A stretch of DNA of 58,218 bases, the filler included, from Dugesia japonica (lineage: Eukaryota), in NCBI GenBank assembly GCA_001938525.1. It is 6 parts of 6 records of this genome, joined end to end, with 100 filler letters (N's around TTAATTAATTAA, not from the genome) between each part and the next. Parts side by side here need not be neighbours in the genome. Positions count along the whole stretch, not along the records: positions 8,582 to 21,325 come from MQRL01647294.1; 5 more parts are not named here. The stretch is one strand, 5' to 3'. The position numbers and the translations under genes are program-made. The notes beneath the pieces are model-generated. The model did no database searches. It saw nothing but the letters and a program-made list of their open reading frames with translations, and was not told the DNA's origin. Each line of letters opens with the position of its first letter. Positions within the stretch are counted from its first letter, which is position 1. Of the stretch, positions 2,965-58,218 are shown piece after piece.

Positions 2965-5299
2965 GTTATATAAATAATAAGATGATTTACAAGTTAACAT
3001 TATATTNGTTAAAAAANTAGCAATATTAAAACAAATCAAATTCAGGAATTGACTTTTCAATTGACTTTTCAAAAGTCTCTTCCTGACGAAGACAAAGTCA
3101 AAATATAGAATTGTTATCAAAAATCAAAAAAACAAATTTTAATCGAAGCTTTTATTTTAAATAATTAAATTGAATTATAAAGTTACTAATATTATGAAAC
3201 AATAAAAATAAACACATCATGACAAATTAATTGTAATATTTTTAAACAAAATCATAACAAAAGGTTATAATAAATCAAAGGATTAATAAGTTTCAATCCC
3301 TGTAAATTATTAGAACATAATGCCACACCATCATTTGATATTCGTTTAACCCTCATACAATATTATCCTTTTAATATTTGTTCATATAATACGCATACAC
3401 GATTCATTTAATAGTTGTTTATTCATTGGACTATCTCGACGGATGTAAGCACTACAGGGTGATCAGTATAACTAACAATCCACAATCAAAACTATGTGCG
3501 CATCTCAATTATTATTTTAAACTTATACAAATAAATAATCAAATAATAAATTTACTTTTCTTAAAAATAGCGATATTGATACCATAGCTGTTAGACTCAA
3601 AATTGCATATTTTTAAAAAAGAATGATTTTTTGATTATTTTGCTTCCTTATATACCCTAATGTATCGTTAAATTTTGACAGATACTTCGTAGAAACAACT
3701 TTGGTTTTGTTTTTTTTCTACTTTATGAATTTTATGATTGATAGTGTATTATTCATTCGTGGGCTTTATTTCTTTTTTACAGCTTATTTTATTATTATTT
3801 TATTGACAATAAACGGTGCCAATACGATGGTGACATTAAAAATTGTGATCAGTAAGCCGGCGCCAATTACTTTTGAAAGAAAATGTTTTAACATAAAATA
3901 ATAATTTTAATTAATTCGATTTTTTTGAAATCGAAATATAAATAGGAAATACTACACAAATATAATTATTTCAATAATAATATCAGAATATTACTTTAAA
4001 TAAACAAATCTATTTCTACGTATAAATTTATTTTCCTAATTTTATTCGGATTTACATAAATTAAAATATTTAATGTAATAATAATAATAAAATTAGTAAT
4101 ATTTTAAAATAATAATAATTTTCAACTTTACATTACGTAATTTATTATAATATAATTTTATGATAATAATAACAATTATAATAATTATTTTTCCTGAATT
4201 ATATTGATGCTTTAATATTTTTATTATAAAAACGTTAATTTTACTTTTAATAATAACCTTTTCTTATTGGAGTTATTTGTTTTAATTTACATAATTATAG
4301 TATTTATTTTATTATATATATATATATATATATATACTTGTATAAACATTTATAAAAGTATAAATATTGATATAATATCCAGCTTTTCCTTTTTGTTTCA
4401 ATTTTGTGTTTCGTAATTTTTTCCGTTTCTTTCATTTCTTGATAAATTTTCATTTTAGTTCATCTTAATTAATATTCTTTTATTTTCTTGACGCCTATTT
4501 TATTAATGATTATTTCCTTTAATCTTCCTTTGAGCATTTTTTCTTTAATTCCTTTTATTTCCTGAGCCATAGTTGTTTATTAATCCTTGCATGACATTTT
4601 GCCTATTGATTATTTCTTTTGAACAATTATTTTTTTGAGTAGTATTTTATTATTTCTTCTTCATTTCTTAATTCATTTATTTTATTATCTATCATCTCGT
4701 TTCTCTATATTTTTTTCCTCTTCCCTTTTGTTTTAATTCATTTACATTTTATTAATCTATTTAATTCACTATTAATGCGTTAAGTTTGGCCTCATAGCTG
4801 CTGAAGCACAACATAATTTTCATTTTTAAAATTGTGACTATATATTTCTCGATAATCAATGTTCTTCGATAAAGTTATTGACGTAGCATTGAAATGAACC
4901 ACTTTTTCACTAGACTTTTTATAGCTATCAATATATTGATATTCACTTTGAAATGTNNNNNNNNNNNNNNNNNNNNNNNNNNNNNNNNNNNNNNNNNNNN
5001 NNNNNNNNNNNNNNNNNNNNNNNNNNNNNNNNNNNNNNNNNNNNNNNNNNNNNNNNNNNNNNNNNNNNNNNNNNNNNNNNNNNNNNNNNNNNNNNNNNNN
5101 NNNNNNNNNNNNNNNNNNNNNNNNNNNNNNNNNNNNNNNNNNNNNNNNNNNNNNNNNNNNNNNNNNNNNNNNNNNNNNNNNNNNNNNNNNNNNNNNNNNN
5201 NNNNNNNNNNNNNNNNNNNNNNNNNNNNNNNNNNNNNNNNNNNNNNNNNNNNNNNNNAGACAATGTTTAAGATGTATTAATAGATTTTTTTCTAAATTT

Positions 5300-5640
5300 T
5301 TTTGTTCAATACTCTATTGCTGTAAGGCAATTATTCTTACTATCTCCATTATAATTCCAAATAGCTTCATATATTGCCTTTGGAATATATATAATTTCCG
5401 GTTACTATTTTAACATTATTAAATGAAAGAATGAATGAATCTTTGAACAGAGTATAAAACATATAATTGGTGGGTGCTAAACAAGAAACTTAAGCCAAAC
5501 GTTTTCCAGTTTTATCAACTACTTTTACCTTTACATTCATACCTTATCATTCAAATTCAAATATGCTGTTTGATATCGAATAATGAAAAACAATATTTTG
5601 CTTTTTTGACCAGTAATTGAATTCATTGAAAACACATCTA
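5300..5640 (-). pseudogene. Polinton/adintovirus major capsid (hexon-like) N-terminal fragment, copy 1
   Basis: Frameshifted translation ...VKVKVVDKTGKRLA...APTNYMFYTLFKD...FNNVKI...AIWNYNGDSKNNCLTAIEY. Alignable at nucleotide level with 24840-25000 (PSNYMLHTPFKD...INYNADSKKKCLTAMEY). Confidence 0.7.
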
Positions 5641-6258
5641 CAAATTTTTTTAGTTTATTTTAAAATCGGATAGTTAGGAAATTTAAAATTAAAATATTTA
5701 GCATTTTCCGTTTTTAAATATGAATTTTTAAGTTTGTTTGAAAAAAGCAAATTTATGTTCATAGTTTTTATTTGAAATAAATTTTAATATGGAGTTTAAT
5801 TTTGATTTTGATGATCTGATGAGTACTCAAAACTCATCTAACAATTAAATACTTAAATTGTAAAATATAATCTCTTGATCGAAATTTATCAAGTTAAGGT
5901 CTAATCAAAATCTCAAGAATAAACTTCAAGAAACTTCGTTAATAATCTATGCGTTTTGCTTATAAATTAATCAAAAGTTTCCCGTCTATTCATACTTAAT
6001 ATTCATATTCATACCCGTCTACTCCCACACCTATTAGTAACCGAAACATTCATCTCGTAGTGTAAGCCACTTTTTACTCAGATAGAAAAGCGAGTTACTA
6101 AAATGTCAAAAACAATATTATATAAAAAATCTAATTCTTTAATAAAATTAGTTATTAGAAATCTCAGTAGATGTGTAGTTAAAATTTAAGCTGTATAAAC
6201 GTCATGACTGCTATTTTAGTTTCTCGGGTAGAAAATTAATTAATCTAATCTCTAAATG

Positions 6259-7641: not shown

Positions 7642-8481
7642 ATGTTTCTAAAATTTTTATTATCAGTCATATTTTTGCTTATTTTTATTAAACTATACAA
7701 AGCACAATGCGGGTGTACTCAAAAAGTAAAGTAATTTTATTTTAAATAAGATTTTGTTTTAATTTAATTTTTCTTTCTTCTAGGCAATCAAAATCCAAAC
7801 TTTTGCTGTTGATGATATGATTTTGTCTTCACAAGATCTTTTAATAATAAACGGAGTAAATGAAATTAATTTAATGTTATAATTTCATGGATGAATACGA
7901 TCTTCTAGTTTAAAGCAGCTCAAGGTAATCATTGGCCAAACAAAACTGTAAGATATTCATTCTATCCTTCATACCGTAATAATAATGAATTTTAATTATA
8001 ACAAGTTGTAAAATGATTTTATTCATTTCCAGCTGACAGAAATAAAAACAGAATCAGAGAATATTTAGCCATTTATGAAAAAGAATTGGGAAATTGTTTA
8101 AAATTTATCGAGGAAAACACTGGTGTTTTTGCAAGCATATTAATGGGACCGGGATGCCACTCGAGTATTGGATATAGTAAAGATTTACCTTTACAAATAA
8201 CATTGCCAGATAAATGTGTTAATAAACGAAACGTAAAACATGAATTTACGCATTTGATCGGATTCATGCATGAACATACTCGACCTGATAGAGATCAATA
8301 TTTGACAATTCAATTTGAAAATATTCACACTCCATGTAAAATAGATTTTAAAAAACTTTTTTTAAAATCTATCATTTAAGATTGTTATAATTTCTTTATA
8401 TGCGAAGGATGTAAAGTCACAACAACATATGATTTTGAAAGTATCATGCAATATGGATCAAGAGCTTTTACGTGTAATGGA
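7642..8481 (+). CDS. Astacin-family (M12A) zinc metalloprotease, secreted; 5 exons, 3' end lost at contig end
   Basis: Signal peptide MFLKFLLSVIFLLIFIKLYKA. Exons ~7642-7725, 7784-7855, 7909-7975, 8033-8336 and 8381-8481, separated by GT-AG introns of ~45-60 nt that splice in frame. Propeptide DDMIL, WPNKTVRY, GCHSSIG, zinc motif HEFTHLIGFMHEHTRPDRD and Met-turn YDFESIMQYG. Confidence 0.93.
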
Positions 8482-11361: not shown

Positions 11362-14300
11362 TGTTGTAGTAGTAAAATAAATAATGTCTAAAAATAATAA
11401 TTGTGATTTGCAAAANGAATTACCNATTGAAGATTTACCNAACATGGTGGCAGTGGTAAATACCGATTCTATTACAGAGAGGTTATTGCCAAAAGTGTTC
11501 TGCAGAGGAGATGATATTGAGAAATTCATCAAGCAGTGTGTATTGTATTTTTAAGCTTAAAACATCACCCATGTGAAACAACAGGAGAGATTAGTCACTT
11601 GTTTGCTAGATGAAGATTTGTTGAAAGAATATTTAAAGACGTTTAAACGTTGAAAGTTTTCAGTCTCACTCACATATGGCATTTGAGAAAGAAAAAGATG
11701 TTTTCAAAGATTTTCAAAATTTGATTAACTACAGGCGTGAAAATGAAGGATTCAAGTTTATTTTAAAAATGTAAAAGATTTAGTGGAAAGATTATTTACA
11801 AATAAAGATTTTACTGAGAAAAAATGGTAGCAAAAATGCTACTATATTGTTCAGATAACAAAAAAATTGAAGAAGAAATGACTTTGAGGAAACGAGAGAA
11901 TATAGAAGAAATTGAAGAAACAATGATGTTAGTAGATCGAGTAGAGAAAAATAGAGATTGTGTTGATGCAGTTAGAAGTTACGCAAGAGTTACAAGTCAA
12001 AATTATCAGAAACCAGTAAATTATACAGTGAATAGAAATGTGGATCAAAGAAAGGAAAAACAAAAATATCGAATGTTGGTTATGTCATAAGATCGATCAT
12101 AATAAAGCAAATTGTCCGAAAAAAAGTGGTAGAGTGCTGGAGTTGTCATAAAAAAGTCGAGATTGTCCAAATAAAAACTAACAAAATGTTTTGGTTGTTG
12201 AAAGGTTGGCCATATTAGAAGGTTATGTCAAGAAATAATGAATTTGCATAGTTAATAATAAGTAATGTGATATTGGCGGACATATGGCAGAAGAGTGCTA
12301 CACAAACTTGAAAATGAAAAAAACAAGTGAGAAATTTATGACTGCAGAAAGATCAAGAAACCGATATAATCGAGTTCATGCGGTTGAAGATAAATATGTC
12401 AGTACAAACGGTGGATTTGAGGAAGTATATGAAAGTGATTCCGAAAGGCAGTAACCAAAAAGCAGGGCTCTATTAGTATTGGAGTTTGTTGGAGCCATCC
12501 ATTGTTAAATTAAGTGAGTAATTATCCTCAAGGGTTCAAAAAGTGGGATGATATAGGAAAAGTTACAGAAAAAGTATACAGGTTCTTAAAGAGGGAAAAT
12601 TTTGCAGATGATAGACAAGTAGAATAGGTTGGAACAATTGAAGCAAGAAAGAAAACAAATATTTCGTACTATAAATTGCAAGGCAGACCAAGTGTTACGG
12701 TATCAATTCAAGGAAATAAAGNNNNNNNNNNNNNNNNNNNNNNNNNNNNNNNNNNNNNNNNNNNNNNNNNNTTTGAGTTGTTTTAATAAATTACAAGAAG
12801 TAAATTTAGAAATGAGTGATAAAAGATTGCGTTGTGCAAATAATAGTACACTTGAAGTTGTTTAGTAAAGTTAGAACTGGAGTGATAATTGATGAAGTTT
12901 GCAAAGAGATTACTTTCTTAGTTGCTGAAAGAGTGACANCAGATCTGATAGGAAGAAAATATATGAAGAAGATNTTTGGATATCAGCTTATGTGAAAGGT
13001 TAACAGCAAAATGGATGAAAAGGTTGAAAATTACATTTGCAGTATTGAAGCATAATTTGGGAGACAAATTAAAAAAGGAGAGTGATTGACTTAAATATTT
13101 TGAAGATTAAAGAGAATCAACGGTTACTGAAAATAATTGAAAGTAAAGAAGATGCTTTTATGGCAGATAAATGTGATGTAGGACGCACACATCTGACAAG
13201 ACATAAAATAATCACCAGTGGTGAACCGATCAATGTAAAACCATGCAGGCAACCAATGAACTTAGAAGATAAAATTGAAGAAGCTATCCAAAGCCTTTTT
13301 GAGAATAATATTATAAGGAAATACAGCACTCCATGGAATACCCAACTGATCTGTGTTTGGAAAAAGGAACAGAAGGACAAAAGAATATGTTTTGATTTCA
13401 AAAAATTGAATGAAGTAACGAAACGTCAAGCCTTTCCGATGACTAGTGTCGATGAAATGCTGGACAAGTTAGATGGAGCCAAATATTTCAGTTCAATAGA
13501 TTTGGGAAATGCATAATATCAGGTAGAGCTCAAAGAAGAATCTCAAGAAAATACGGCGTTTTCAACAAAGCATGGACAATATTGTTTTAATAGAATGCCA
13601 TTTGGCATCGTAGTGGCACCAGAGACATTTCAGGAGATGATGATAAAAATGGTAGGCGGAATCAATAGAGCTGTTGTTTATCTTGATGACATTATGATAT
13701 TTAGGAACAATGAAAATCAACACTACAAAGTCATTGAAAACGTATTGATGGAAATAACGAAGGGTGGTCTAAGAATAATTCCGGGAACGTGTCAGTTTCT
13801 TCAAAGCGAAATCAAATTTTTTAAACACATAATTAGCAGGAATGGTGTTAGAACTGATCCGTCTAAAATAGAAGCAATATGAACATTTGACAAACGTAAC
13901 TGTGTGTAGAAGTTACAAAGTTTCTTGGGAATTTGTAATTATTACAGGAAGTTTATAGAAAACTACGCAAGAAAGTCAAAGATATAAGAGCAGTTGTGTA
14001 GCGGACCAAGCAACAAGAAATTAGAATGGACAGAGAAAAAATCGATACTTTTAAAGGTCTGAAAAACTCTCTAATAACTGCATTAATATTGTGTTTTCCG
14101 GCCATTAAACAAAGAATTTATATTATACACAGATGAAAGTTTTGATACAATTGGAGCAGTATTGTCAAAGAAAGATAAGGAAGGAAGAGAAAGAGTTGTT
14201 GCCTATGGATCACACTCAATGATGAGTCATGAAAAGAGATGCTGCATAACACGAACAGAGTTATTGGCTGTGTATTATTTCTGTATGCATTTCAAACATT

Positions 14301-14587
14301 ACTTGTTAGGTAGAAGATTTACTCTTAGAAAAGATCATAAAGCTCTAACTTTTATGATGACGACAAATAAACCGATTACGTCACAATTCTAAACATGGAT
14401 AAATTATCTGAGCAGTTTAGATATAATTTTGGAATATAGAAAGGAATTCAACATGGTAATGCAGATATGTTATCTAGACCAAGATATGAGGTATGTGTAC
14501 AATGTCAAATGTAGAAAATCAAGAAAATGACAATTCCGGATGACAAACTACATATGAAACAATAGAAGAAATACACAAATTATTATA
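11362..14587 (+). mobile_element. Degraded Ty3/gypsy LTR retrotransposon (LTR remnant, tRNA-Leu PBS, gag with CCHC knuckles, protease, RT, RNase H, start of integrase)
   Basis: TGTTG...AACA followed by PBS TGGTGGCAGTGGT at 11445-11457. Gag MVAVVNTDSITERLLPKVF. RT RICFDFKKLN, YFSSIDLGNA, MPFG, VYLDD. RNase H VVAYGS...ELLAV...DHKAL. Truncated at 14588 by a Polinton terminus. Confidence 0.93.
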
Positions 14588-16240
14588 AGTAGGAAGATAG
14601 TAGCGCACGGTCACAATTTAAAATGGTCACAAGTTGATGGGGTCTCGACAACTGCTTACGATTGTGACCGTATTTTTGTGATGGTTTTTTTTCTAAGATT
14701 TTGGGATCAAAAAAAATTTTTTTTGTTTTTTTTGGAGTTTTTAAGATTTGGTTGTTGTTGGACAAAATTTCGCTCTATATATTGTCTAAAGGACTTATGA
14801 TGTTGGATGTATGGTTTGTCATAGAAGTATGGTAGCGCACGTTCACAGTCATATGAGTTATTGCGGGGTATTTTTTTTGGAGGCTGTAGGTTTGTAGTGG
14901 GTTTATGGATTTTGTTGCTTGATGATTTATTGGAGATGTAATGTGATGAGCAATACTTTGGATGTCAATTGTGACTTAATTTCTGATTGGTTGTGCTTGA
15001 ATTTGATTAGTTAATATTTGTAAGTAGTATAAAAATGTTAAAAAAATTTCGCAAAGGTATGTGTGGAAAGACAATTAATTATCGGATTTTTTAAGATTTA
15101 TTTGAAATCTTTCAGGCAGAAGTGTATGACGTCATCATCTTTTGAAATCCTTATTTTGGTTAAAATTTTGAATTTAACGAAAGTAATGGTATTTTTGTAA
15201 AAAGGATGTATTTTTGAATATATTTTGAGTATTTTTGAACAGGGAAGGTTTGATTTTTAATATTTTTCGAACCGGGAAGAGGGGAGTCTTGATATATTTT
15301 TTGGCAGGAAACTCAAAGATTTTTTTGTTGGGAAATTTAAAGAATTTTTTNNNNNNNNNNNNAAGAATTTTTTTTTGCATGAGAAATTTAAATTTGTTTT
15401 TGAGAAGACTTTATATTTATGTGTAAGATGGAGCAGTCTTGATATTTAGCATGGGGAGTTTCTATATTTAGTAACGGGAAGTTTCTATATTTAGCATGGT
15501 ATCGGCAGTCTTGATATTTTGCATCGGGCAAACTTGATATTTCGCATGGGTCAGTCTTTATATTTTACATGGTATGAGCAGTCTCTATAATATTACAAGA
15601 TATCGGGCAGTCTTAATATTTTTCATGGTATGAGTAGCCTCTTTATTTTGCATAGGATGGAACAGACATGATATTTTGCAGTAGATGGATCAGTCTTGAT
15701 ATTTTTGCAAGAGATTGGACAGTCTTGATTAAGAACTATAATACTTTATGAGTGTATTATTTACAAAGTAAGCCTGTATAATATGTTTTATGAGAGTATT
15801 ATTTGCACGCAACCGTGTATTATGGGGTTTACAAGTATTTTATTTACAAAACAACAGTTTAATGGTTTTTATATGTATTATTTACATAACAATTATGTAT
15901 TCAAGGATTATAAGTGTATTATTTGCATAGTTACCTTGTCTTATTTACATAGTAACTATGTATTATAGGGTTTATGAGTGTTTTATTTACATAGTAACTG
16001 TGTAATATAAGACTTATAAGGGTATTATTGTCATAGTTACCTTGTTGTATTTACATAACAACAGTATAATATAAGACTAAGGAGGGAATTATTTACATAG
16101 CAAACGTGTAATATAAGGTTTATGAAGGTAGTTTTACATAGTAATTATGCAATATAGAGTTTATGAGTGTAATCTTTGTAAATTTACATTGTATTATTTA
16201 CTTATCAACTATGTAATATAGGTTTTATCAGTGTGGATCA
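14588..16240 (+). mobile_element. Polinton/Maverick terminal inverted repeat arm with subterminal tandem arrays (left arm)
   Basis: Starts AGTAGGAAGATAGTAGCGCAC, the AG-initiated, AGT-rich Polinton-type terminus. Homologous to 56785-58200 (+) and 25750-26909 (-). ~30-bp GGCAGTCTTGATATTTTGCAT repeats at 15425-15730 and ~42-bp repeats at 15735-16240. Confidence 0.8.
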
Positions 16241-16439
16241 TTTTCATATTTATAACTTAAAATTACTGTATTTATACTTAATGTTTACTTGTTGATGTTT
16301 TTTTTACTGAAATAAATCATTATGAAAAACCTTATTAATATGTAATTATAAAACATGTTTTTTACAAAATAACTAAAAATACTAAATAAAAGAAAAACAA
16401 AATATTAAAACATTTATTCAATGATAACAAAAATATTCA

Positions 16440-16727
16440 TTGTATTCATTCATTTCAGCCAGATGCTTTTCTATAGCAACCAGTAAATTAAACTTTGTGC
16501 ACCCGAAACAACCAGGTGCGCAAAATTCAGCTGCCATATAGTGATTTACCANTACTTCCGGAAGAAAAGGTTGCCTTTTTTCGTCCAAGATTCCCCGTTC
16601 TTAGCAAATATCAACAAGCATTCCTTAATTAAAATTAATAATAAAATTATAAAATAAATAAAAATCAAACCTCTTTTGCAAATTGTTCTTTCATTATCTT
16701 CATTTTTTCAATAATTGTTGAAGCCAT
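16440..16727 (-). pseudogene. Small two-exon ORF relic with CAPGCFGC motif, inside the Polinton arms
   Basis: ATG at 16727 (MASTIIEK). GT...AG intron at ~16670-16624. Exon 2 reads GMLVDIC*ERGILDEKRQPFLPEVXVNHYMAAEFCAPGCFGCTKFNLLVAIEKHLAEMNE. Needs one frameshift and contains one stop. Confidence 0.4.
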
Positions 16728-16757
16728 TTTAAAATTATAAGAAATAATAATGAAATG

Positions 16758-16791
<34 letters not shown>

Positions 16792-16904
16792 CTAATGAAA
16801 AACCTCAACGTAATATATAAATTATTTGAAATTTATATATCTAAATTTAAATGGAGTTTTTTTGTACTTGAATTATAAAAGTTTTGCATTTGTGTTGCAA
16901 ATTT

Positions 16905-17357
16905 TCAAAATTTATCAATCAAATTAAATAAATCTGAAGTAATGTTACTCACATATCCTTGAAAATTCAAATTTTAAAGCTCTATTATTACTGGTTTTCC
17001 CGTTGAGAACACATTTAGACATAAAGGGTCATATTTTACAAGTCTTAGAGCGGGAAATAACTCTGGTTTAAACCAACAGTTGACTATTTTTGATAATTTA
17101 TACAAATTTATTGAAACTCCCATATTTAATACAATGGATAGCGATTGAAATTGTAAATATTTTCTTTCATAAGGGTTTAAATCAAGCGGTTCCAATGGTT
17201 TCTTACAACCCGTTATTCTACATTTTCCTAATCTTAAGTACATAATTGTAAATTTATCACTTTTAACTTGGAATGGACAGGGTTTTCCCTTTAAGAAAGC
17301 TCATTTTTTAATTACTTCTTGCGACACTTCACCTCTGTAATTAATATTGGTGATCAT
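16905..17357 (-). pseudogene. Divergent intronless TATA-binding protein (TBP)-like gene, two in-frame stops
   Basis: One frame of 151 codons: MITNINYRG...*...TIMYLRLGKCRITGCK...LQFQSLSIVLNMGVSINLYKL...FKPELFPALRLVKYDPLCLNVFSTGKPVIIEL*NLNFQ...F*. Aligns by eye with both TBP core repeats (TALIFSSGKMVCTGAK; YEPELFPGL...LLIFVSGKVVLTG). Confidence 0.78.
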
Positions 17358-17489
17358 AATAAATGAATTAAGAAGAACATTAGGAATATGATGGTATTAA
17401 TTTAATTGATTCGTTATAAAATGTAATAAATTAAAGAAAACTAAGATAAGCAAATGATAATCAAATTATTCTATGTAGAAAATACCACC

Positions 17490-19080
17490 ATAAGCCTTAT
17501 TTTACACAGTTGCTCTGACAATAATACATGGTTGTTATATAAATATTACATGGTAACTAAACAAATAATATACTCATAAACCGTATAATATATGGTTACT
17601 AAGCATTAATACAGTCATAATCCTTATAATACATGGTTGTTATGTAAATAATGTAAGGTAACTGTGCAAATAATATACTCATAAAACCTATTATACAAGG
17701 TTACTATGTATTAATTCACTCAGAATCCTTACAATAGAATGTTGCTATGTAAATAATACAAGGTAACTATCCAAATAATATACTCATAAACCTTATAATA
17801 CAGGTTTACTATGTATTAATACAATCATATTCCTTATAATATATGGTTGCTATGTAAATAATGTAAGGTAACTGTGCAAATAATATACTCATAAAACCTA
17901 TTATACAGGGTTACTATAAATTAATTCACTCAGAATCCTTATAATAGATGGTTGCTATGTAAATAATACAAGGTAACTATGCAAATAATATAGTAATAAA
18001 CCTTATAATACAGGGTTGTTTTGTAAATAATTCCATCATAAGTCTTAGATTATACCGTTTTTATGTAAATATTACCCCCCATAAGCCTTTTATAACACGG
18101 TAAATATGTAAGTAATATACACCTAATACAGGTTTAAACAATACACTCAGAAACCCTATATAGTCATAACAACATTTACTTATAAGTTTTATGTAGACCT
18201 TTAAGGTATTTTTAAAGTAATTTTTAGTTATATATATGGAAAATTGTCACTCTCATACATCTTATAATGTATATTGTATGTAAATAATATAAGTTACCTA
18301 TGTAGATATCACACTCATAATCCTTAAAATACACGGTTGCTATGTAAATAATGCAAGGTAACTATGCAAATAATATACTCATTAACCCTATACAACCATA
18401 AAAGTATTTTCTTGTAAGTTTTTATATATTGAAAGGCGCCATGAATTTATGTTTTTTTTGAAAACAGTTCTACGTTTTTATCATTTTGTTCTAAGAAATG
18501 TTCTTAGTTAATGAGATTTTTTATAAAAAAATTACAACACTAATGAGATTTTCTATTAAAAATTGCATCGGTAATGAGATTTTTTACAAAAAATTTCAAC
18601 ACTAATGAGATTTTTTATCGAAAACTGTCACTAGTAATATGTTTTTTATAGAAAAATTACCTAGCTATATGTGAATATGTTTTTTATAGAAAAATTACCT
18701 AGCTATATGTTAATATGTTTTTTATAAAAAAATTACCTAGCTATATGTTTATATAAAAATACTTCTATGTTTTTATCATCTTATAAAGAAATGTTTTGAT
18801 TTGAATATTTTATTATGTAAATATCACAGAGACTCCCCTCTTTGATATTTTCATTGGATATATTTTATCATGAAAATATCACAAATACACTGAAAATCAC
18901 ATGCCTATAAATTTTAGATGGTTTCATCCCTTGCAAAATATCAAGACTGTCCCATCTAAAGCAAAAATATGTTTAAAAAATCAATAATGCTTCAATCTCT
19001 TAAAAATATCAAGACTACCCAATATCCTGCAATAATATCAAGACTGGCCTATCTAAAGTAAAATATAAAGAAATAATCAA
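17490..19080 (-). mobile_element. Inverted (right) Polinton TIR arm, terminus missing
   Basis: 17490-18390 is the reverse-complement family of the 15735-16240 array. 18930-19070 (TGCAAAATATCAAGACTGTCCC) is the reverse complement of the 15425-15730 repeats. ~31-bp repeats at 18500-18750. Confidence 0.75.
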
Positions 19081-34149: not shown

Positions 34150-35632
34150 AATGCAGTGGGCCATAAAGAATGTTCCCTTGTAATAAGAATACAGTTGATG
34201 TTCCAATTTAGGAATTAACAGAGCTCATACTTAGGAAAATTATGCATGTCGTATCCTCTTAAATTATGGAATAGAAAAGGTAATTTTATGTTTATTCTTC
34301 TTCTTAGATTGCAAGAGTTACATGATGCGTCCATGTTTTCATATAAATTATATAGTATTGTATCAAAATACTAAATTCTTAAGCATTCATCATTTAAATT
34401 AAAAAACACCTGTAAAATATCGTACCATAAAATAATATATTTTGTTCAGTCAAATACCCAACATAGTTATAATTTTATCCCCCTTCAAGTAACAATAAAT
34501 TTGTTTTCTGACTAATTTCAACTCTTGATCTTTGAACAATATCCAAATTAGGATGTTTCATAAAGATTTCCACATCCTCATAGTCAATAGAATTTCTATT
34601 AGATGATAACACATTGATAGATAACCCTGGATTTGGGTTTACAAATTTCAGTAGAAATCANNNNNNNNNNNNNNNNNNNNNNNNNNNNNNNNNNNNNNNN
34701 NNNNNNNNNNNNNNNNNNNNNNNNNNNNNNNNNNNNNNNNNNNNNNNNNNNNNNNNNNNNNNNNNNNNNNNNNNNNNNNNNNNNNNNNNNNNNNCTACAC
34801 ATTAATTTTAACTTTTTTCTTTCCATTATTAGAGTGCGACAAATAACTACTTCCTGTAAGCCGACTTATATTGCTTATTTTAGTCAATTTGAAGTTAATT
34901 TTTAATATTCTACTGAGAATCTAGCTACTTCCTAGTTCAGTTCATACATGAATGATCTTCTCATTTAATGACTTATTTCATTCTTCAAAAAACTAATCAC
35001 AAAGTAGTACAGCACTATTAGATATTAGATATTTCGATGAACTCTAATGAATCCCAAATTGAATTTTTCCATTCTTCATTTTTTCAATTATTTGAAATAA
35101 TCTATTTACTAAAGTATCTGGTAAAATTATCTCTCGTATGTTAAATCTTAAAACATTTAATGTCAAGATCTGGTGACATCTGTACAAGTCGGTTTCAGTA
35201 ACAGATTTGGCTATGAAACTGCCAATCTGTGATTATTCCTTCAAATATTTGTTTACACTTTTTCTGTAACATCATTAAGGTTCTCTTCAATTATTTCAAT
35301 ATTATTCGAGTCCGTTTCTTTATTTACAACCACTTGTTCAATAATTGCTTGTTCATTCTTGATAATATCTTTATCCTCGTTATTAACAATCACTTACGGT
35401 TAAAATATTTTAGAAGGAGAATCTTCGAGAATTTCCATCAACAGTGTTTTATTACTTGAAGTACATTGTGTCAATTGATGTGTATGCGGCCTTGATATGT
35501 ACTTAAACCTAATGTAGAGCATGCAGGACATATATAATACATTTTCTGATAATAAGATTATAATATCTTTTGATTTTCTCATGATAGAGATCGTTAAATT
35601 TTGAATTTCTACAATAGTTGGTATATTCTTTT
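34150..35632 (-). pseudogene. Polinton pPolB 5' part, copy 3 (heavily degraded, not evident from the ORF track)
   Basis: Fragments in order: EYTNYCRNSKFNDLYHEKIKRYY, YYICPACSTLGL, TELGSS*ILSRILKINFKLTKISNISRLTGSSY, NPGLSINVLS...KHPNLDIVQRS...NLLLLEG, ASCNSCNLRRR...LPFLFHNLRGYDMH (ExoII). Confidence 0.85.
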
Positions 35633-35877: not shown

Positions 35878-35908
35878 ACGGTACCCCTCTCACTACTATC
35901 TACTTACT
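35878..35908 (-). mobile_element. Polinton-type terminus upstream of pPolB copy 3
   Basis: Minus strand AGTAAGTAGATAGTAGTGAGAGGGGTACCG, similar to the termini at 14588, 26909, 28913 and 56785. Confidence 0.5.
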
Positions 35909-39919: not shown

Positions 39920-40459
39920 TCAACACGTATTATAATTTGCTTTAGCTTCATAGTATTTTCTTTCTACTCGTCTCCAATTGTAAGGATCGAGGCTGAGTTC
40001 ACAAGTCTCATGATAATGTTCATCAATTCCTGCACATCTTTCATCAAGTCGTTTGCATATAAAATTACATTTCCTGCCAATTCTGATATATCTCCGTCGA
40101 CAGAAATCTTTAATAGCATCACAAGCTTTATTACAGACCATATCGAGGAAATATAATCGATTTTCGCAAACCTGTTTCGGATTGCCACATTTATTTAGTA
40201 AATTTGATTCTTTAGCATTACATCCGTCAGTTAAATGATGGAAAGCTTTATCACATTTCTTGGCAAGAACATCACTCGCTCCTTTACATATCATACCACC
40301 ATGTTTACGAAATTCATCACACTTCAACTTTAGAGGTATCAGATCTTCACATTCTTGCTCTCCATATCGAACTAAAATTGGTACCTTTGCAGATGTGTAT
40401 TGAATAAATATTAAGATAATTACTAAAAACAGAATTGACAAAATATTGTAATTTATCAT
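39920..40459 (-). CDS. Secreted cysteine-rich protein, 179 aa, 15 Cys with 11-residue periodicity; no family recognised
   Basis: ATG at 40459 directly follows a TTTTTTTTCAG acceptor. Signal peptide MINYNILSILFLVIILIFIQYTSA. Intact single-exon ORF. Confidence 0.85.
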   Translation of the reverse strand: MINYNILSILFLVIILIFIQYTSAKVPILVRYGEQECEDLIPLKLKCDEFRKHGGMICKGASDVLAKKCDKAFHHLTDGCNAKESNLLNKCGNPKQVCENRLYFLDMVCNKACDAIKDFCRRRYIRIGRKCNFICKRLDERCAGIDEHYHETCELSLDPYNWRRVERKYYEAKANYNTC

Positions 40460-40699
40460 CTGAAAAAAAATATTATTAAAATTATAAATAAAACATTTCA
40501 TAAGATGTCTCACTTTACAGAATTTATTAAAATAAATAATAATACTGATTGTTATGCTTTTGTATTCTAGTTGATTTGTAGGACTGTGGAGCTGTGATCT
40601 ACACAACTAATTTGATGCACCTACGTAATTTTCACCACATTTTCTTTCAATTTGAAAATTGTAGGCTTTCAATAAGTTCATCAACTAAAAATGCTAGCA

Positions 40700-45790: not shown

Positions 45791-45881
45791 TAACAGGAAT
45801 ACTAATGATAATAATAATTATAATAATAATGACGATGATAATAATAAATATAATAATGATATCAATAGTCAATAATAATAA

Positions 45882-48405
45882 TGTAGTTAGAAGTTACGCG
45901 AGAGTTACAAATCGAAATTATCAGAAACCTGTAAATCATACAGTGAATAGACATGTGGAGCAAAGAAAGGAAAAACAAAATATCGAATGTTGGTCATGCC
46001 ATACGATCGGTCATACTAAAGCAAATTGTCCGACAAAAAAGTGGATTAGTGCTGGAGTTTTCATAAAGCTGGACATATCAGTCGAGATTGTTCAAATAAA
46101 AAACCAACAAAATGTTTTGGTTGTGGAAATTTTGGCCATTTTANAAAGTTATATCAAGAAGTGAGGTGTAAACGATGTGGTAATAGTGGACATAGAGCAG
46201 AAGATTGCTACACAAATTTGAAAGCGAAAAGAACAAGTGAGAAATTTATGCCTGCAGAAAGATAAAGAAACAGATATATAATCGAGTAAATGCGAATGAA
46301 GATGAAGATGTTAATACAAACGATGAATATGAGGAAGTGTATGAAAGAGATTCTGAAAAGCAGAGGCTCCACCAGTAGAGGAGTTGGTTGGAGTCATCCA
46401 TTGTTAAATAAAGTTAGTAATTATCCTCATGGGGTTGAAAAGTGGGATGATATAGTAAAAGTTACAGAAAAAGTATACAGGTTCTTAAAGAGTGAAAATT
46501 TTGCAAATGATAGAAAAGTAGAATGGGTTCGAAAAGTTGAAGCAGAAAAGAAAACAAATATTTTGTACCATAAATTGCAAGGCATACAGAGTCTTACGGT
46601 ATCAATTCAAAGAAATAAAGTAGAATGTCTATTAGATACAGGGACTCGAATTAACGTGATGAGTTTGAGTTGTTTTAATAAATATCGAAAAGTAAATTTA
46701 GAAATGAGTGATGAAAAATGGTATTGTCCAAATAATAGTATACTTGAAATTGTTGGGAAAGTTAGAACCGGAGTGATAATTAATGAAGTTTGCAAAAAGA
46801 TTACTTTCTTAGTTGCTGAAAGAGTAACACCAGATCTGATAGGAGGAATAGATATGCAGAAGATTTTTGGATACCAGCTTATGCGAAAGGTTGATAGCAA
46901 AACGGATGACAAAGTCGAAAATTACATTTGCAATATTGAAACAAAATGCGGAAGACAAATTAAAAAAGGAGAGCATTAATTATTTTGAAGATTAAAGAGG
47001 ATCAACGGTTATTGAAAATAATTGAAAGTAAAGAAGATGCTTTTATGGCAGATAAATGGGATGTAGGTCGCACACAAAATAATCACAAGTAGTGAACAAA
47101 TCAATGTAAAACTGTATAGGCAACCAATAAACTTGAATCTAAAATTGAAGAAGCTATCCAAAACCTTTTGGAGAATAATATTATCCGGAAATACAACTCT
47201 CCATGAATACCCCACTAATCTGTGTTTAGAAAAAGGAAAGAAAGATACAAGAATGTTTGTATTTCAGACAGTTGAATGCACTAACGAAAAGAGAAGCCTG
47301 TTTGTCGATGAAATGCTGGACAAGTTAGATGGAGCCAAATACTTCAATTCAATAGATCTGGGAAATGCATACTATCAGGTAGAGTTCGAAAAAAAATCTC
47401 AAGAAAAAACGGCGTTTTCAACTATGCATGGACAATATTGTTTTAATAGAATTCCATTTGGCATTGCAGCGGCACCATGGGCATTTTAAGAAATGATGGA
47501 AAACGTGGTAGGCGGAATCAATGGGGCCATGGTTTATCTTGATAACATCCTGATATTTACGAACAATAAAGATCAACACTTTGAAGTAATTGAAAGAGTA
47601 TTGGCGGAAATAATGAAGGCTAAGAATTAATCCGGAAAAATGTCAGTTTCTTCAAAGCGAAATCAAGTTTCTTGGACACATAATTNNNNNNNNNNNNNNN
47701 NNNNNNNNNNNNNNNNNNNNNNNNNNNNNNNGAACATTAGGCAAACCTAACTGTGTAAAGAAGTTATGAAGTTTCTTGGGAATTTGTAATTATTATACGA
47801 AATTTATAGAAAACTACGCAAGAAAATCAAAGATATTAGAGCAGTTGTGTAGCGGACCAAGCAACCAGAAATTAGAATGGACAGATGAAGTGATACTTTT
47901 AGGGGTCTAAAAAAATCTCTAATGATTGCACCAATATTGTGTTTTCCGGACATAAACAAAGAATTTATATTTGATACGGATGCCCGTTTTGATACGATTA
48001 GAGCAGTATTGTAACAGAGAGCTAAAAAAGGAAGAAAAAGAGTTGTTGCCATATTGAATCACACTTACTGACAAGTCATGAAAAGGTATACTGCATTACA
48101 CAAAAGGAGTTATTGGCTGTGTATTATTTCTGTATACTTTTCAAACATTACTTGTACGGTAGAAGATTTACTCTTCAAACAAATCACAAAGTCCTAACTT
48201 TCATGATGACGACAAAGAAACCAATTACGTCGCAATTCCAGACATGGATTAATTTTCTGAGCAGTTTAGACATGGTTTTGGAATTCAACATGCTAATGCA
48301 GATATGTTATCTAGACCAAGATGTGAGGTATGTGTACAGTGTCAAATGTCACATGAAGATGCCAATAAAGGGAAGATTAAAACGAGAATACTGAACATAA
48401 TTGAA
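45882..48405 (+). mobile_element. Degraded Ty3/gypsy element, same family as 11362-14587 (gag 3' half, protease, RT, RNase H)
   Basis: High nucleotide similarity to 11968-14510. Four CCHC knuckles, LLDTGTRINV protease, IDLGNAYYQV, KTAFST, IPFG, VYLDN and RNase H. Truncated at both ends. Confidence 0.93.
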
Positions 48406-56784: not shown

Positions 56785-58200
56785 AGTAGATAGAAAGAAG
56801 CGCATCAAAACACTAGCAGTTATCGTGCATCCCTCCCTCGCGGAGAGGGCTCGGAAACACTCTATTGTGCTATGATTTTTTAATTATTTTTTTCTAAGAT
56901 TTTTGGGATCAAAAATTTTTTGATCAGATCAAATTTCTTTTGATCCTGGTGATGTGTGTTTGTTTTTTAATTTTAAAATTTGTGTGTTTGGGTTGTTAAA
57001 GTCTTTTTTAAAAAGTAGGTCAAGTTGAGTTGGTATGTGTGGTTGTGTGTGCTTGAAAGAAGTGTTTTGGACTCGAGGGGGAGCTGGAGATCTTGGAAAT
57101 ATTTTTTTTGGAGTTTTCAAGATTTGGTTGGTGTGGACAAAAATTTGGTCTATATTTTGTCTAAAAAATTTATGGGATTGGATGGATGGATTTTGCTAGA
57201 AGTGTGGTAGTGCATCAGATCAGTCGTACTAGTTATCGTGGGGTGTTTTTTAGGGAGGTTGTAGGTTTGTAGGAGGTTATTGGATTTGAATGGTTGATGT
57301 GTTTTTGGAGAGGTAATGTGATGGAAAATATTTTGTATGTCGAATGTACTTTGATGTTTTATTTAAAGGGGTTGAATTTGATTGGTTGATTTTTATAAGT
57401 AGTATAAAAGTGTTAAAAAAGTTTTTGGGGAGGTGGACAAAGGTATGTGTGCAAAGACAATTAATTATCAAATTTTTTAGGATGTATTTAAAATTTTTCG
57501 GGCTGAAGTGTATGACGTCATAATCTTTTGAAATCTTTATTTTGGTTAAAAATGCTGTATTTTGCTTTAAATGATAAATTTAATGAAAGTAATGGTATTT
57601 TTGTTAAAATGATGAATTTTTGAACAGGGAAATTTTGTTTTTTAATATTTTTGGATGTGGGAAGAGGATAGTCTTGATATTTTTTTTGGCAAGAAATTTA
57701 AAAGTTTTCTTTTCGGCGGAAATTCAAAAAAATATTTTTTTGGCGAGAAATTTAAAAATTTATTTTTGCATGAGAAATTTAAAATTTTTTTATTGAGCAG
57801 ACTTTATATTTATGTATGAGATGGAACTGTCTTCATATTTAGCATGGGTAGTTTCTATATTTAGTAACGGGGAGTTTCTAAATTTAGCATGGTATGGGAA
57901 GCCTCTCTTTTATGTATGAGACGGGGGATTTTCTATATTTAGCATAGTATGGGGCAGTCTTGATATTTTACATGGACGATTCTCTATATTTTGCATGTGA
58001 CCGTCTTGATATTTTGTATGGTATGAGGGAGTCTCTATATTTAGCATGGTATGAGGGAAGTCTCTATATATAGTATGGTATGAGGGGAGTCTCTATTTTC
58101 GTACAAGATATTGGACAGTCTTGATATTATTACACGATATCGGGCAGTCTTGATATTTTGTAAGATATTATTACAAGATATCCGTCAGTCTCTTCAAAAA
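56785..58200 (+). mobile_element. Polinton TIR arm, third long copy
   Basis: Starts AGTAGATAGAAAGAAGCGCATC exactly where hAT homology ends. Colinear with 14690-15730 and with the reverse complement of 25750-26800. Confidence 0.8.
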
Positions 58201-58218
58201 ACTTCAAAGAGTGCAGTC

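Follow-up and report, generated by a model that had tools for sequence, protein, structure and literature searches.

A small TBP-like gene carried by virus-like Polintons, and a promoter box shared by their packaging and putative capsid genes

The gene at 16905..17357 (minus strand) of the window, by which we mean the whole 58,218-nt stretch of Dugesia japonica DNA analysed here, is a dead copy of a small TBP gene carried by a group of virus-like Polintons. The packaging and putative capsid genes of the TBP-carrying Polintons share a TATAAAC/CATAAAC box, and the new observation is this placement of the box (YATAAAC): on the packaging and virion genes of these elements, never on the TBP gene. 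We consider it fairly probable that the gene product, mini-TBP, is an early viral mimic of TBP, made from a host-type promoter, which would bind YATAAAC and recruit host TFIIB and Pol II for late transcription. The window copy being a pseudogene in a nest of fragments, the evidence on function comes from its relatives.

The window copy and its surroundings

The frame reads on the minus strand from an ATG at 17357 to a terminal stop at 16907-16905 and needs no intron; its 150 codons include both saddle-repeat motifs, as a prior sequence-only reading had described, and the two stops noted there lie at codon 19 (17301..17303) and codon 128 (16974..16976), also on the minus strand. The TBP identity proposed in that reading held up: translated with X at the stops for Pfam and solved-structure matching, the copy scores 29.5 bits against PF00352, above the curated cut-off of 22.9 (E 6.8e-7), and its top match among solved structures is an archaeal TBP (E 1.7e-5). 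Besides the stops, 7 of 33 near-invariant columns are altered, compared with 0-2 in 106 of 109 intact relatives and more than 5 in none of them, and its branch in the family tree measures 0.29 vs 0.063 for its sister P0003; for these reasons, stops included, we regard it as a pseudogene. No clear TATA is left upstream of its ATG; an initiator-like TCATT stands immediately upstream (17358..17372, minus strand), and 24 of the 28 promoters of intact family members likewise have an initiator-like sequence.

The copy is flanked by an array of ~105-bp units on its left (15746..16270) and by an inverted partner of 105-bp units, with 68-89% local identity, on its right (17464..18392). The two arrays hold 7 and 8 copies of TGTAAATA, whose likeness to the TBPm3 site we take as coincidence in AT-rich DNA. 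Farther out, a putative left terminal arm that begins with an AGTAGG end motif (14588..15730, plus strand) is 71% alike across 843 nt to a putative right arm lying beyond scaffold gaps (25783..26909, minus strand). Inward-facing copies of the 14-nt end motif stand at 14588 (+) and 26909 (-); the window contains 4 matches to it vs 0.01 expected. Between these outer arms, past a scaffold gap from the TBP copy, sit a degraded N-terminal stretch of the gene for a protein-primed DNA polymerase B (pPolB) (21931..22884, minus strand; iE 1.6e-54) and a putative major capsid protein gene fragment (24336..25019, minus strand), which matches the family profile at iE 4.1e-73 and whose capsid identity is weak. 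The claim that the gene lies between Polinton TIR arms stands in part: the end motif is shared and the arms are alike, but their 6-nt flanks differ, with no matching target-site duplication, and the right arm is cut off from the TBP copy by six N gaps. We therefore conclude that this is Polinton-derived DNA and that a single element with true TIRs is not shown. The end motif is absent from the 151 loci examined, and no TIR was found in five long loci examined.

The window as a whole is a nest of Polinton remains, AT-rich, gapped and crowded with them. A third copy of the end motif, at 35895-35908 (-), leads into a decayed pPolB N-terminal region (34155-35079, -), in support of the motif being the end of a Polinton. 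More pPolB, capsid-like and pX-like fragments occur in both orientations (225-518, 4738-5647, 28489-28851, 29479-29661); the pX-like piece in the window has no YATAAAC upstream. Short repeats of the terminal-arm type (25020-25066) adjoin the capsid-like fragment in mid-gene, so that a deletion junction or a second insertion may lie at this arm. The 1-kb arm occurs a third time at 56888-58218, 75% alike to both others and apparently without end motif, next to hAT-like remains. Other residents are two decayed gypsy-like gag-pol copies, 80% alike and labelled from their translations (11966-14512 and 45881-48349), an astacin metalloprotease fragment that fits an animal host (8017-8376; Pfam E 8.8e-20), and a 228-codon frame encoding a hydrophobic leader and a body rich in cysteine, for which Pfam gave no informative match (39923-40606, -).

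An element-borne family

A single-sequence search with the window copy returned 10 relatives, nine of them at 53-71% identity; a profile search extended this to 626 proteins at E<=0.001, with 251 50%-clusters at E<=1e-10. From metagenomes we kept 80 loci out of 84 confirmed matches, and in these the genes near mini-TBP include the ATPase (23 loci), integrase (14), capsid-like and PLA2 genes (10 each), and pPolB and adenain (7 each). At least one Polinton core gene is present in 19 of the 21 loci of at least 4 kb; four loci (L007, L014, L053, L061) have pPolB-like, integrase, ATPase and capsid-like genes beside mini-TBP. The capsid-like label comes from weak Pfam matches (E 0.007, 0.039) and position, and the capsid-like profile found no match among PDB sequences. 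Common Polinton, Maverick and adintovirus genes are pPolB, an rve-chromo integrase, an A32/IVa2 ATPase, adenain, PLA2, and pX-like and capsid-like genes (parts of PMC8502044 and PMC6431247); TBP is outside this core set.

Mini-TBP has diverged together with the element genes, with rho of 0.84 for the ATPase (21 loci), 0.83 for the integrase (11) and 0.65 for the capsid-like gene (8). The intact family is under purifying selection: dN/dS among copies, a measure the sequence-only reading had suggested, has a median of 0.19 across 48 pairs and is below 0.4 in 12 of 13 non-overlapping pairs. In a tree of 67 rows sampled from 145 (11 partial or odd rows dropped), nine cellular-type TBP rows are split from the family by a long branch with support of 100/99; the window copy nests with L002, L007 and L014, and the viral TBPs L081 and L084 group with the cellular-type proteins, apart from the family. 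The phylogeny thus separates mini-TBP from cellular-type and these viral TBPs, in a tree that is without TRF2. L079 and L080 are divergent cellular-type TBPs outside the family, with changes of their own at DNA-facing residues. No member of the clade turned up in IMG/VR when it was scanned with alignments of the family, the capsid-like gene and the ATPase; 4 distant viral TBPs were matched.

Two DNA runs of one organism yielded 4980 and 4264 contigs on 16250-17510, among which only 222 and 142 are at least 99% alike; the TBP family is therefore multi-copy in that organism, which may differ from the window's strain since the runs share at most 0.16 of the stretch's words. Contig depth is concentrated over the TBP gene and is not a copy number. 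An RNA run, X10, gave 302 reads (from ~25% of the run), none of them at least 99% alike and 252 below 90%, with more first mates over the TBP frame on + than on - in a run of unrecorded strandedness; another, X9, gave 45, mostly poly-A loose ends. Because strandedness is unrecorded and carry-over from high-copy repeat DNA is possible, we do not take these reads as expression.

These data bear on the idea that the gene is a retrocopy of host TBP or TRF, or a domesticated paralog, lying in repeats by chance. A TBPL1 cluster does appear among the Atlas look-alikes (score 0.93), and linkage within the window is broken by scaffold gaps. Against this stand the thousands of related contigs in one organism, the Polinton neighbours in unrelated metagenomes, the co-divergence with element genes and the long branch from cellular-type TBPs, and we consider the idea very improbable and already largely refuted. 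Core genes in 19 of 21 loci, co-divergence and the long branch together argue that mini-TBP is not a host retrocopy, in agreement with the earlier view that it is too divergent to be a recent one.

Fold and DNA-facing residues

Mini-TBP is predicted with confidence to have the two-repeat TBP saddle fold. The AlphaFold2 model of P0003, an intact homolog 71% identical to the window copy (109-row alignment; pLDDT 95.5), has no long helix between the two repeats; its best PDB matches are TBPs (TM 0.69-0.80), and 148 of its 150 residues align with human TBP at Z 13.6 and rmsd 2.6. Like cellular TBP (eukaryotic or archaeal, PF00352), then, mini-TBP would have the two-repeat saddle, three of the four intercalating phenylalanines and the C-terminal stirrup. 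It is unlike cellular TBP in its sequence, at ~20% identity, in having other residues fixed at DNA-facing positions, in the apparent lack of a conserved first-stirrup phenylalanine, in an H2 stretch that is shortened in the window's subfamily, and in being multi-copy and element-borne.

The second repeat retains the EPE-F stirrup and both of its phenylalanines, and the first repeat retains its second one; these three are fixed in 109, 108 and 109 of 109 relatives. The first-stirrup phenylalanine has no conserved counterpart, at a position that lies outside hhalign coverage and where the register shifts by 1-2 between alignments. Three residues, I194, V203 and L205, are changed in the yeast altered-specificity mutant TBPm3 (PMC1636458, in part); motif spacing places R, C and N of mini-TBP at these positions, and among 109 close relatives the R is shared by 108 and the C and the N by all. 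Across the broader set, this Asn and one first-repeat Arg remain almost invariant and the other two positions vary, R105 and C113 differing in distant family members. The C-terminal repeat of TBP contacts the 5' half of the box (passages of PMC3142196) and the EPE-F stirrup surface is clamped by Brf1/TFIIB (passages of PMC6066478). Judged from these alignments, the DNA-facing residues are seen to be rewired and the TFIIB-side stirrup retained.

TAND2, TFIIA and BTAF1 bind the convex surface of TBP (PMC3142196, same passages). The stretch that holds helix H2 measures 32-33 aa in cellular-type TBPs, ~17-24 in most of the window's subfamily and 27-31 in the L053/L061 subfamily, so that loss of H2 is not family-wide. 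We take helix H2 to be the convex surface used by these three factors, and its deletion in the window's subfamily would be likely to free mini-TBP from TFIIA, TAF1-TAND2 and BTAF1/Mot1. The short first repeat remarked on in the window copy, and the absence of an N-terminal extension, are family traits.

Promoter classes and proposed role

We searched 25-70 nt upstream of the first ATG, distances being counted to the ATG and not to mapped transcription starts, in dereplicated loci. YATAAAC stands there in 14 of 19 ATPase genes, 11 of 13 pX-like, 6 of 7 PLA2, 6 of 8 capsid-like, 9 of 16 penton-like and 5 of 12 integrase genes (the pX-like and penton-like labels come from weak matches or position), with a peak at -40 to -31. 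It is found before none of 47 TBP, 5 adenain and 7 zinc-finger cluster 10 genes, and before only 1 of 6 in cluster 19. Two promoter classes emerge: the TBP promoters (n=28) have no YATAAAC, a canonical TATA in 16 cases and an initiator-like TCAY in 24, as against 14, 6 and 2, respectively, in the ATPase promoters (n=19). Over L001-L078 the box is strand-biased (224 plus-strand vs 41 minus-strand copies), and it lies in non-coding DNA in 41 instances and in two different coding frames in 10 and 9.

As controls we collected Polinton and Polinton-like loci through matches to integrase, pPolB and ATPase; many are distant protist-type viruses or partial contigs. TBP+ loci of at least 3 kb numbered 33 (29 after dereplication) and TBP-less loci of at least 4 kb numbered 62 (38 after dereplication), TBP-less denoting no TBP match in the portion of the locus examined. 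In the TBP+ set the box precedes 56 of 179 ORFs, spread over 24 of 29 loci; in the set without a TBP match this holds for 4 of 420, from 3 of 38 loci. Canonical TATA is equally represented (43/179 vs 115/420 ORFs). Matched for the ATPase gene, the figures are 14/19 vs 1/31, the one exception being L150. The ORF count excludes L147, a fragment of 5 kb that is near the TBP+ clade and shows no TBP; 3 of its 5 ORFs are preceded by the box. Since the TBP+ loci are related, forming one clade or few, gene and box may co-occur by descent, and Fisher p-values overstate independence; with many of the controls distant or partial as well, the link is an association and not proof. L147, L149/L151 and L150 are Polinton contigs in bacterial genome bins, probably contaminants, and one of them has mini-TBP.

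The sequence-only reading had proposed that the protein redirects host polymerase to element promoters; the presence of two promoter classes gives this real but indirect support. On the reading we favour, host TFIID would start the TBP gene early from its host-type TATA and initiator; mini-TBP would then bind YATAAAC upstream of packaging and virion genes through its rewired concave face and present its conserved C-terminal stirrup to host TFIIB; and Pol II would thereby be brought to these genes for late transcription. Timing, YATAAAC binding and TFIIB recruitment are what we infer, alongside the fold, Polinton residence, selection, promoter classes and residue changes reported above. Counting against this reading are the genes that often lack the box (adenain, clusters 10 and 19, integrase), the box in L150 and L147 where no TBP is seen, the variation at R105 and C113, the pX-like piece of the window with no box, and the absence of TFIIB or another late factor from 129 scanned neighbour ORFs. 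To a fuller version we give about even odds: that a clade of animal Polintons has its own early-to-late switch run by one 150-aa protein, a natural altered-specificity TBP paired with a YATAAAC box poorly served by host TBP; the switch would draw on TFIIB and Pol II of the host and escape control by TFIIA, TAF1 and BTAF1.

The box might instead be read by host TBP or another element protein, mini-TBP doing some other DNA job such as replication or packaging at the AT-rich terminal or 105-bp arrays. L150, a 20-kb contig, has TATAAAC before 2 of 14 ORFs, including the ATPase, and no TBP was found in its genome; wild-type TBP has been crystallised on a C(-25) TATA variant (entry PDB 1qn3, in part), so host TBP may use TATAAAC; TBP-like folds are found in replication initiators too (RepD, Z 7.3); and the arrays beside the window copy carry their TGTAAATA copies. 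But CATAAAC, seen 22 times vs 1.4 expected, departs from the consensus at both ends, five TBP-less relatives have a canonical TATAAAT at the same ATPase position, and a role in replication would give no reason for the near-invariance of the TFIIB-side stirrup. We rate this alternative unlikely.

Somewhat less probable again is that mini-TBP acts as a decoy with no promoter of its own, soaking up TFIIB or blocking host TATA boxes and so damping host transcription. Retention of the stirrup while the first repeat is cut down would suit a decoy, and repression through sequestration of TFIIA is reported for TLF/TRF2 (PMC3142196, in the passages cited above); however, a decoy needs no invariant non-canonical DNA-facing residues, and it leaves unexplained a clade-restricted box that marks virion genes and spares the TBP gene.

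The nearest parallel to the late-transcription reading is herpesviral: KSHV ORF24, EBV BcRF1 and HCMV UL87 are TBP mimics with TATT late promoters (sections of PMC6541308). As there, a TBP-fold protein occurs in a virus without its own polymerase, a variant TATA box, placed at TATA distance (measured here to the ATG), is common to the structural genes, and early genes, among which we would count the TBP gene here, keep host-type promoters. Proteins of the ORF24 type are large, contact Pol II directly and depend on a complex of six proteins (same sections of PMC6541308); mini-TBP, in contrast, has 145-170 aa, the saddle only, a cellular-like EPE-F stirrup and the box YATAAAC, and a Pfam scan of 129 neighbour ORFs revealed no partner of the six-protein type, nor TFIIB or another late factor. 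By this comparison mini-TBP would work like the herpesviral TATT-binding mimics but is not one of them. The TBP homologues of Nucleocytoviricota and poxvirus VITF-3 (BFVD matches) are also viral TBP-fold initiation factors but work with an RNA polymerase that the virus itself encodes and are in most cases longer, whereas the scanned neighbour ORFs of mini-TBP loci include no RNA polymerase subunit.

Whether the system is undescribed, as had been suggested, receives a divided answer. Our literature searches brought up no publication about a TBP family of Polintons or about its promoter box, and TATA, TBP and TFIIB occur 0 times in 10.64898/2026.06.19.733378. A TBP-like gene is, on the other hand, already labelled 'TBP' in the Fig. 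5 legend of PMC8502044 (Starrett 2021), a source whose consulted parts hold no discussion of family, residues or promoters and whose text supplement has no TBP match; its figures may map the gene.

If the proposed role is true, this would be the simplest viral late-transcription system known, an independent and much smaller parallel to the herpesviral TATT-binding proteins, and direct evidence of a virion-producing programme in integrated Polintons. Gene timing in Polintons/Mavericks, and a real virus programme in the animal ones, could be tested directly using a single small protein and a motif of 7 nt; factor and box would provide a means to wake late genes or to track them, and would be a TBP-TATA pair that is naturally orthogonal.

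TBP+ elements also carry accessory genes, namely a ubiquitin-conjugating E2, a dual-specificity phosphatase, RING fingers and KilA-N proteins (accessory-gene loci L007:225-719, L010:4008-4316, L053:13315-13893, L052:1710-2168 and L055/L061/L072). A leucine-rich-repeat membrane protein gene lies two genes after TBP in five loci (L011:1918-3327, L030, L037, L042, L022), and in four of the five it has a YATAAAC box.
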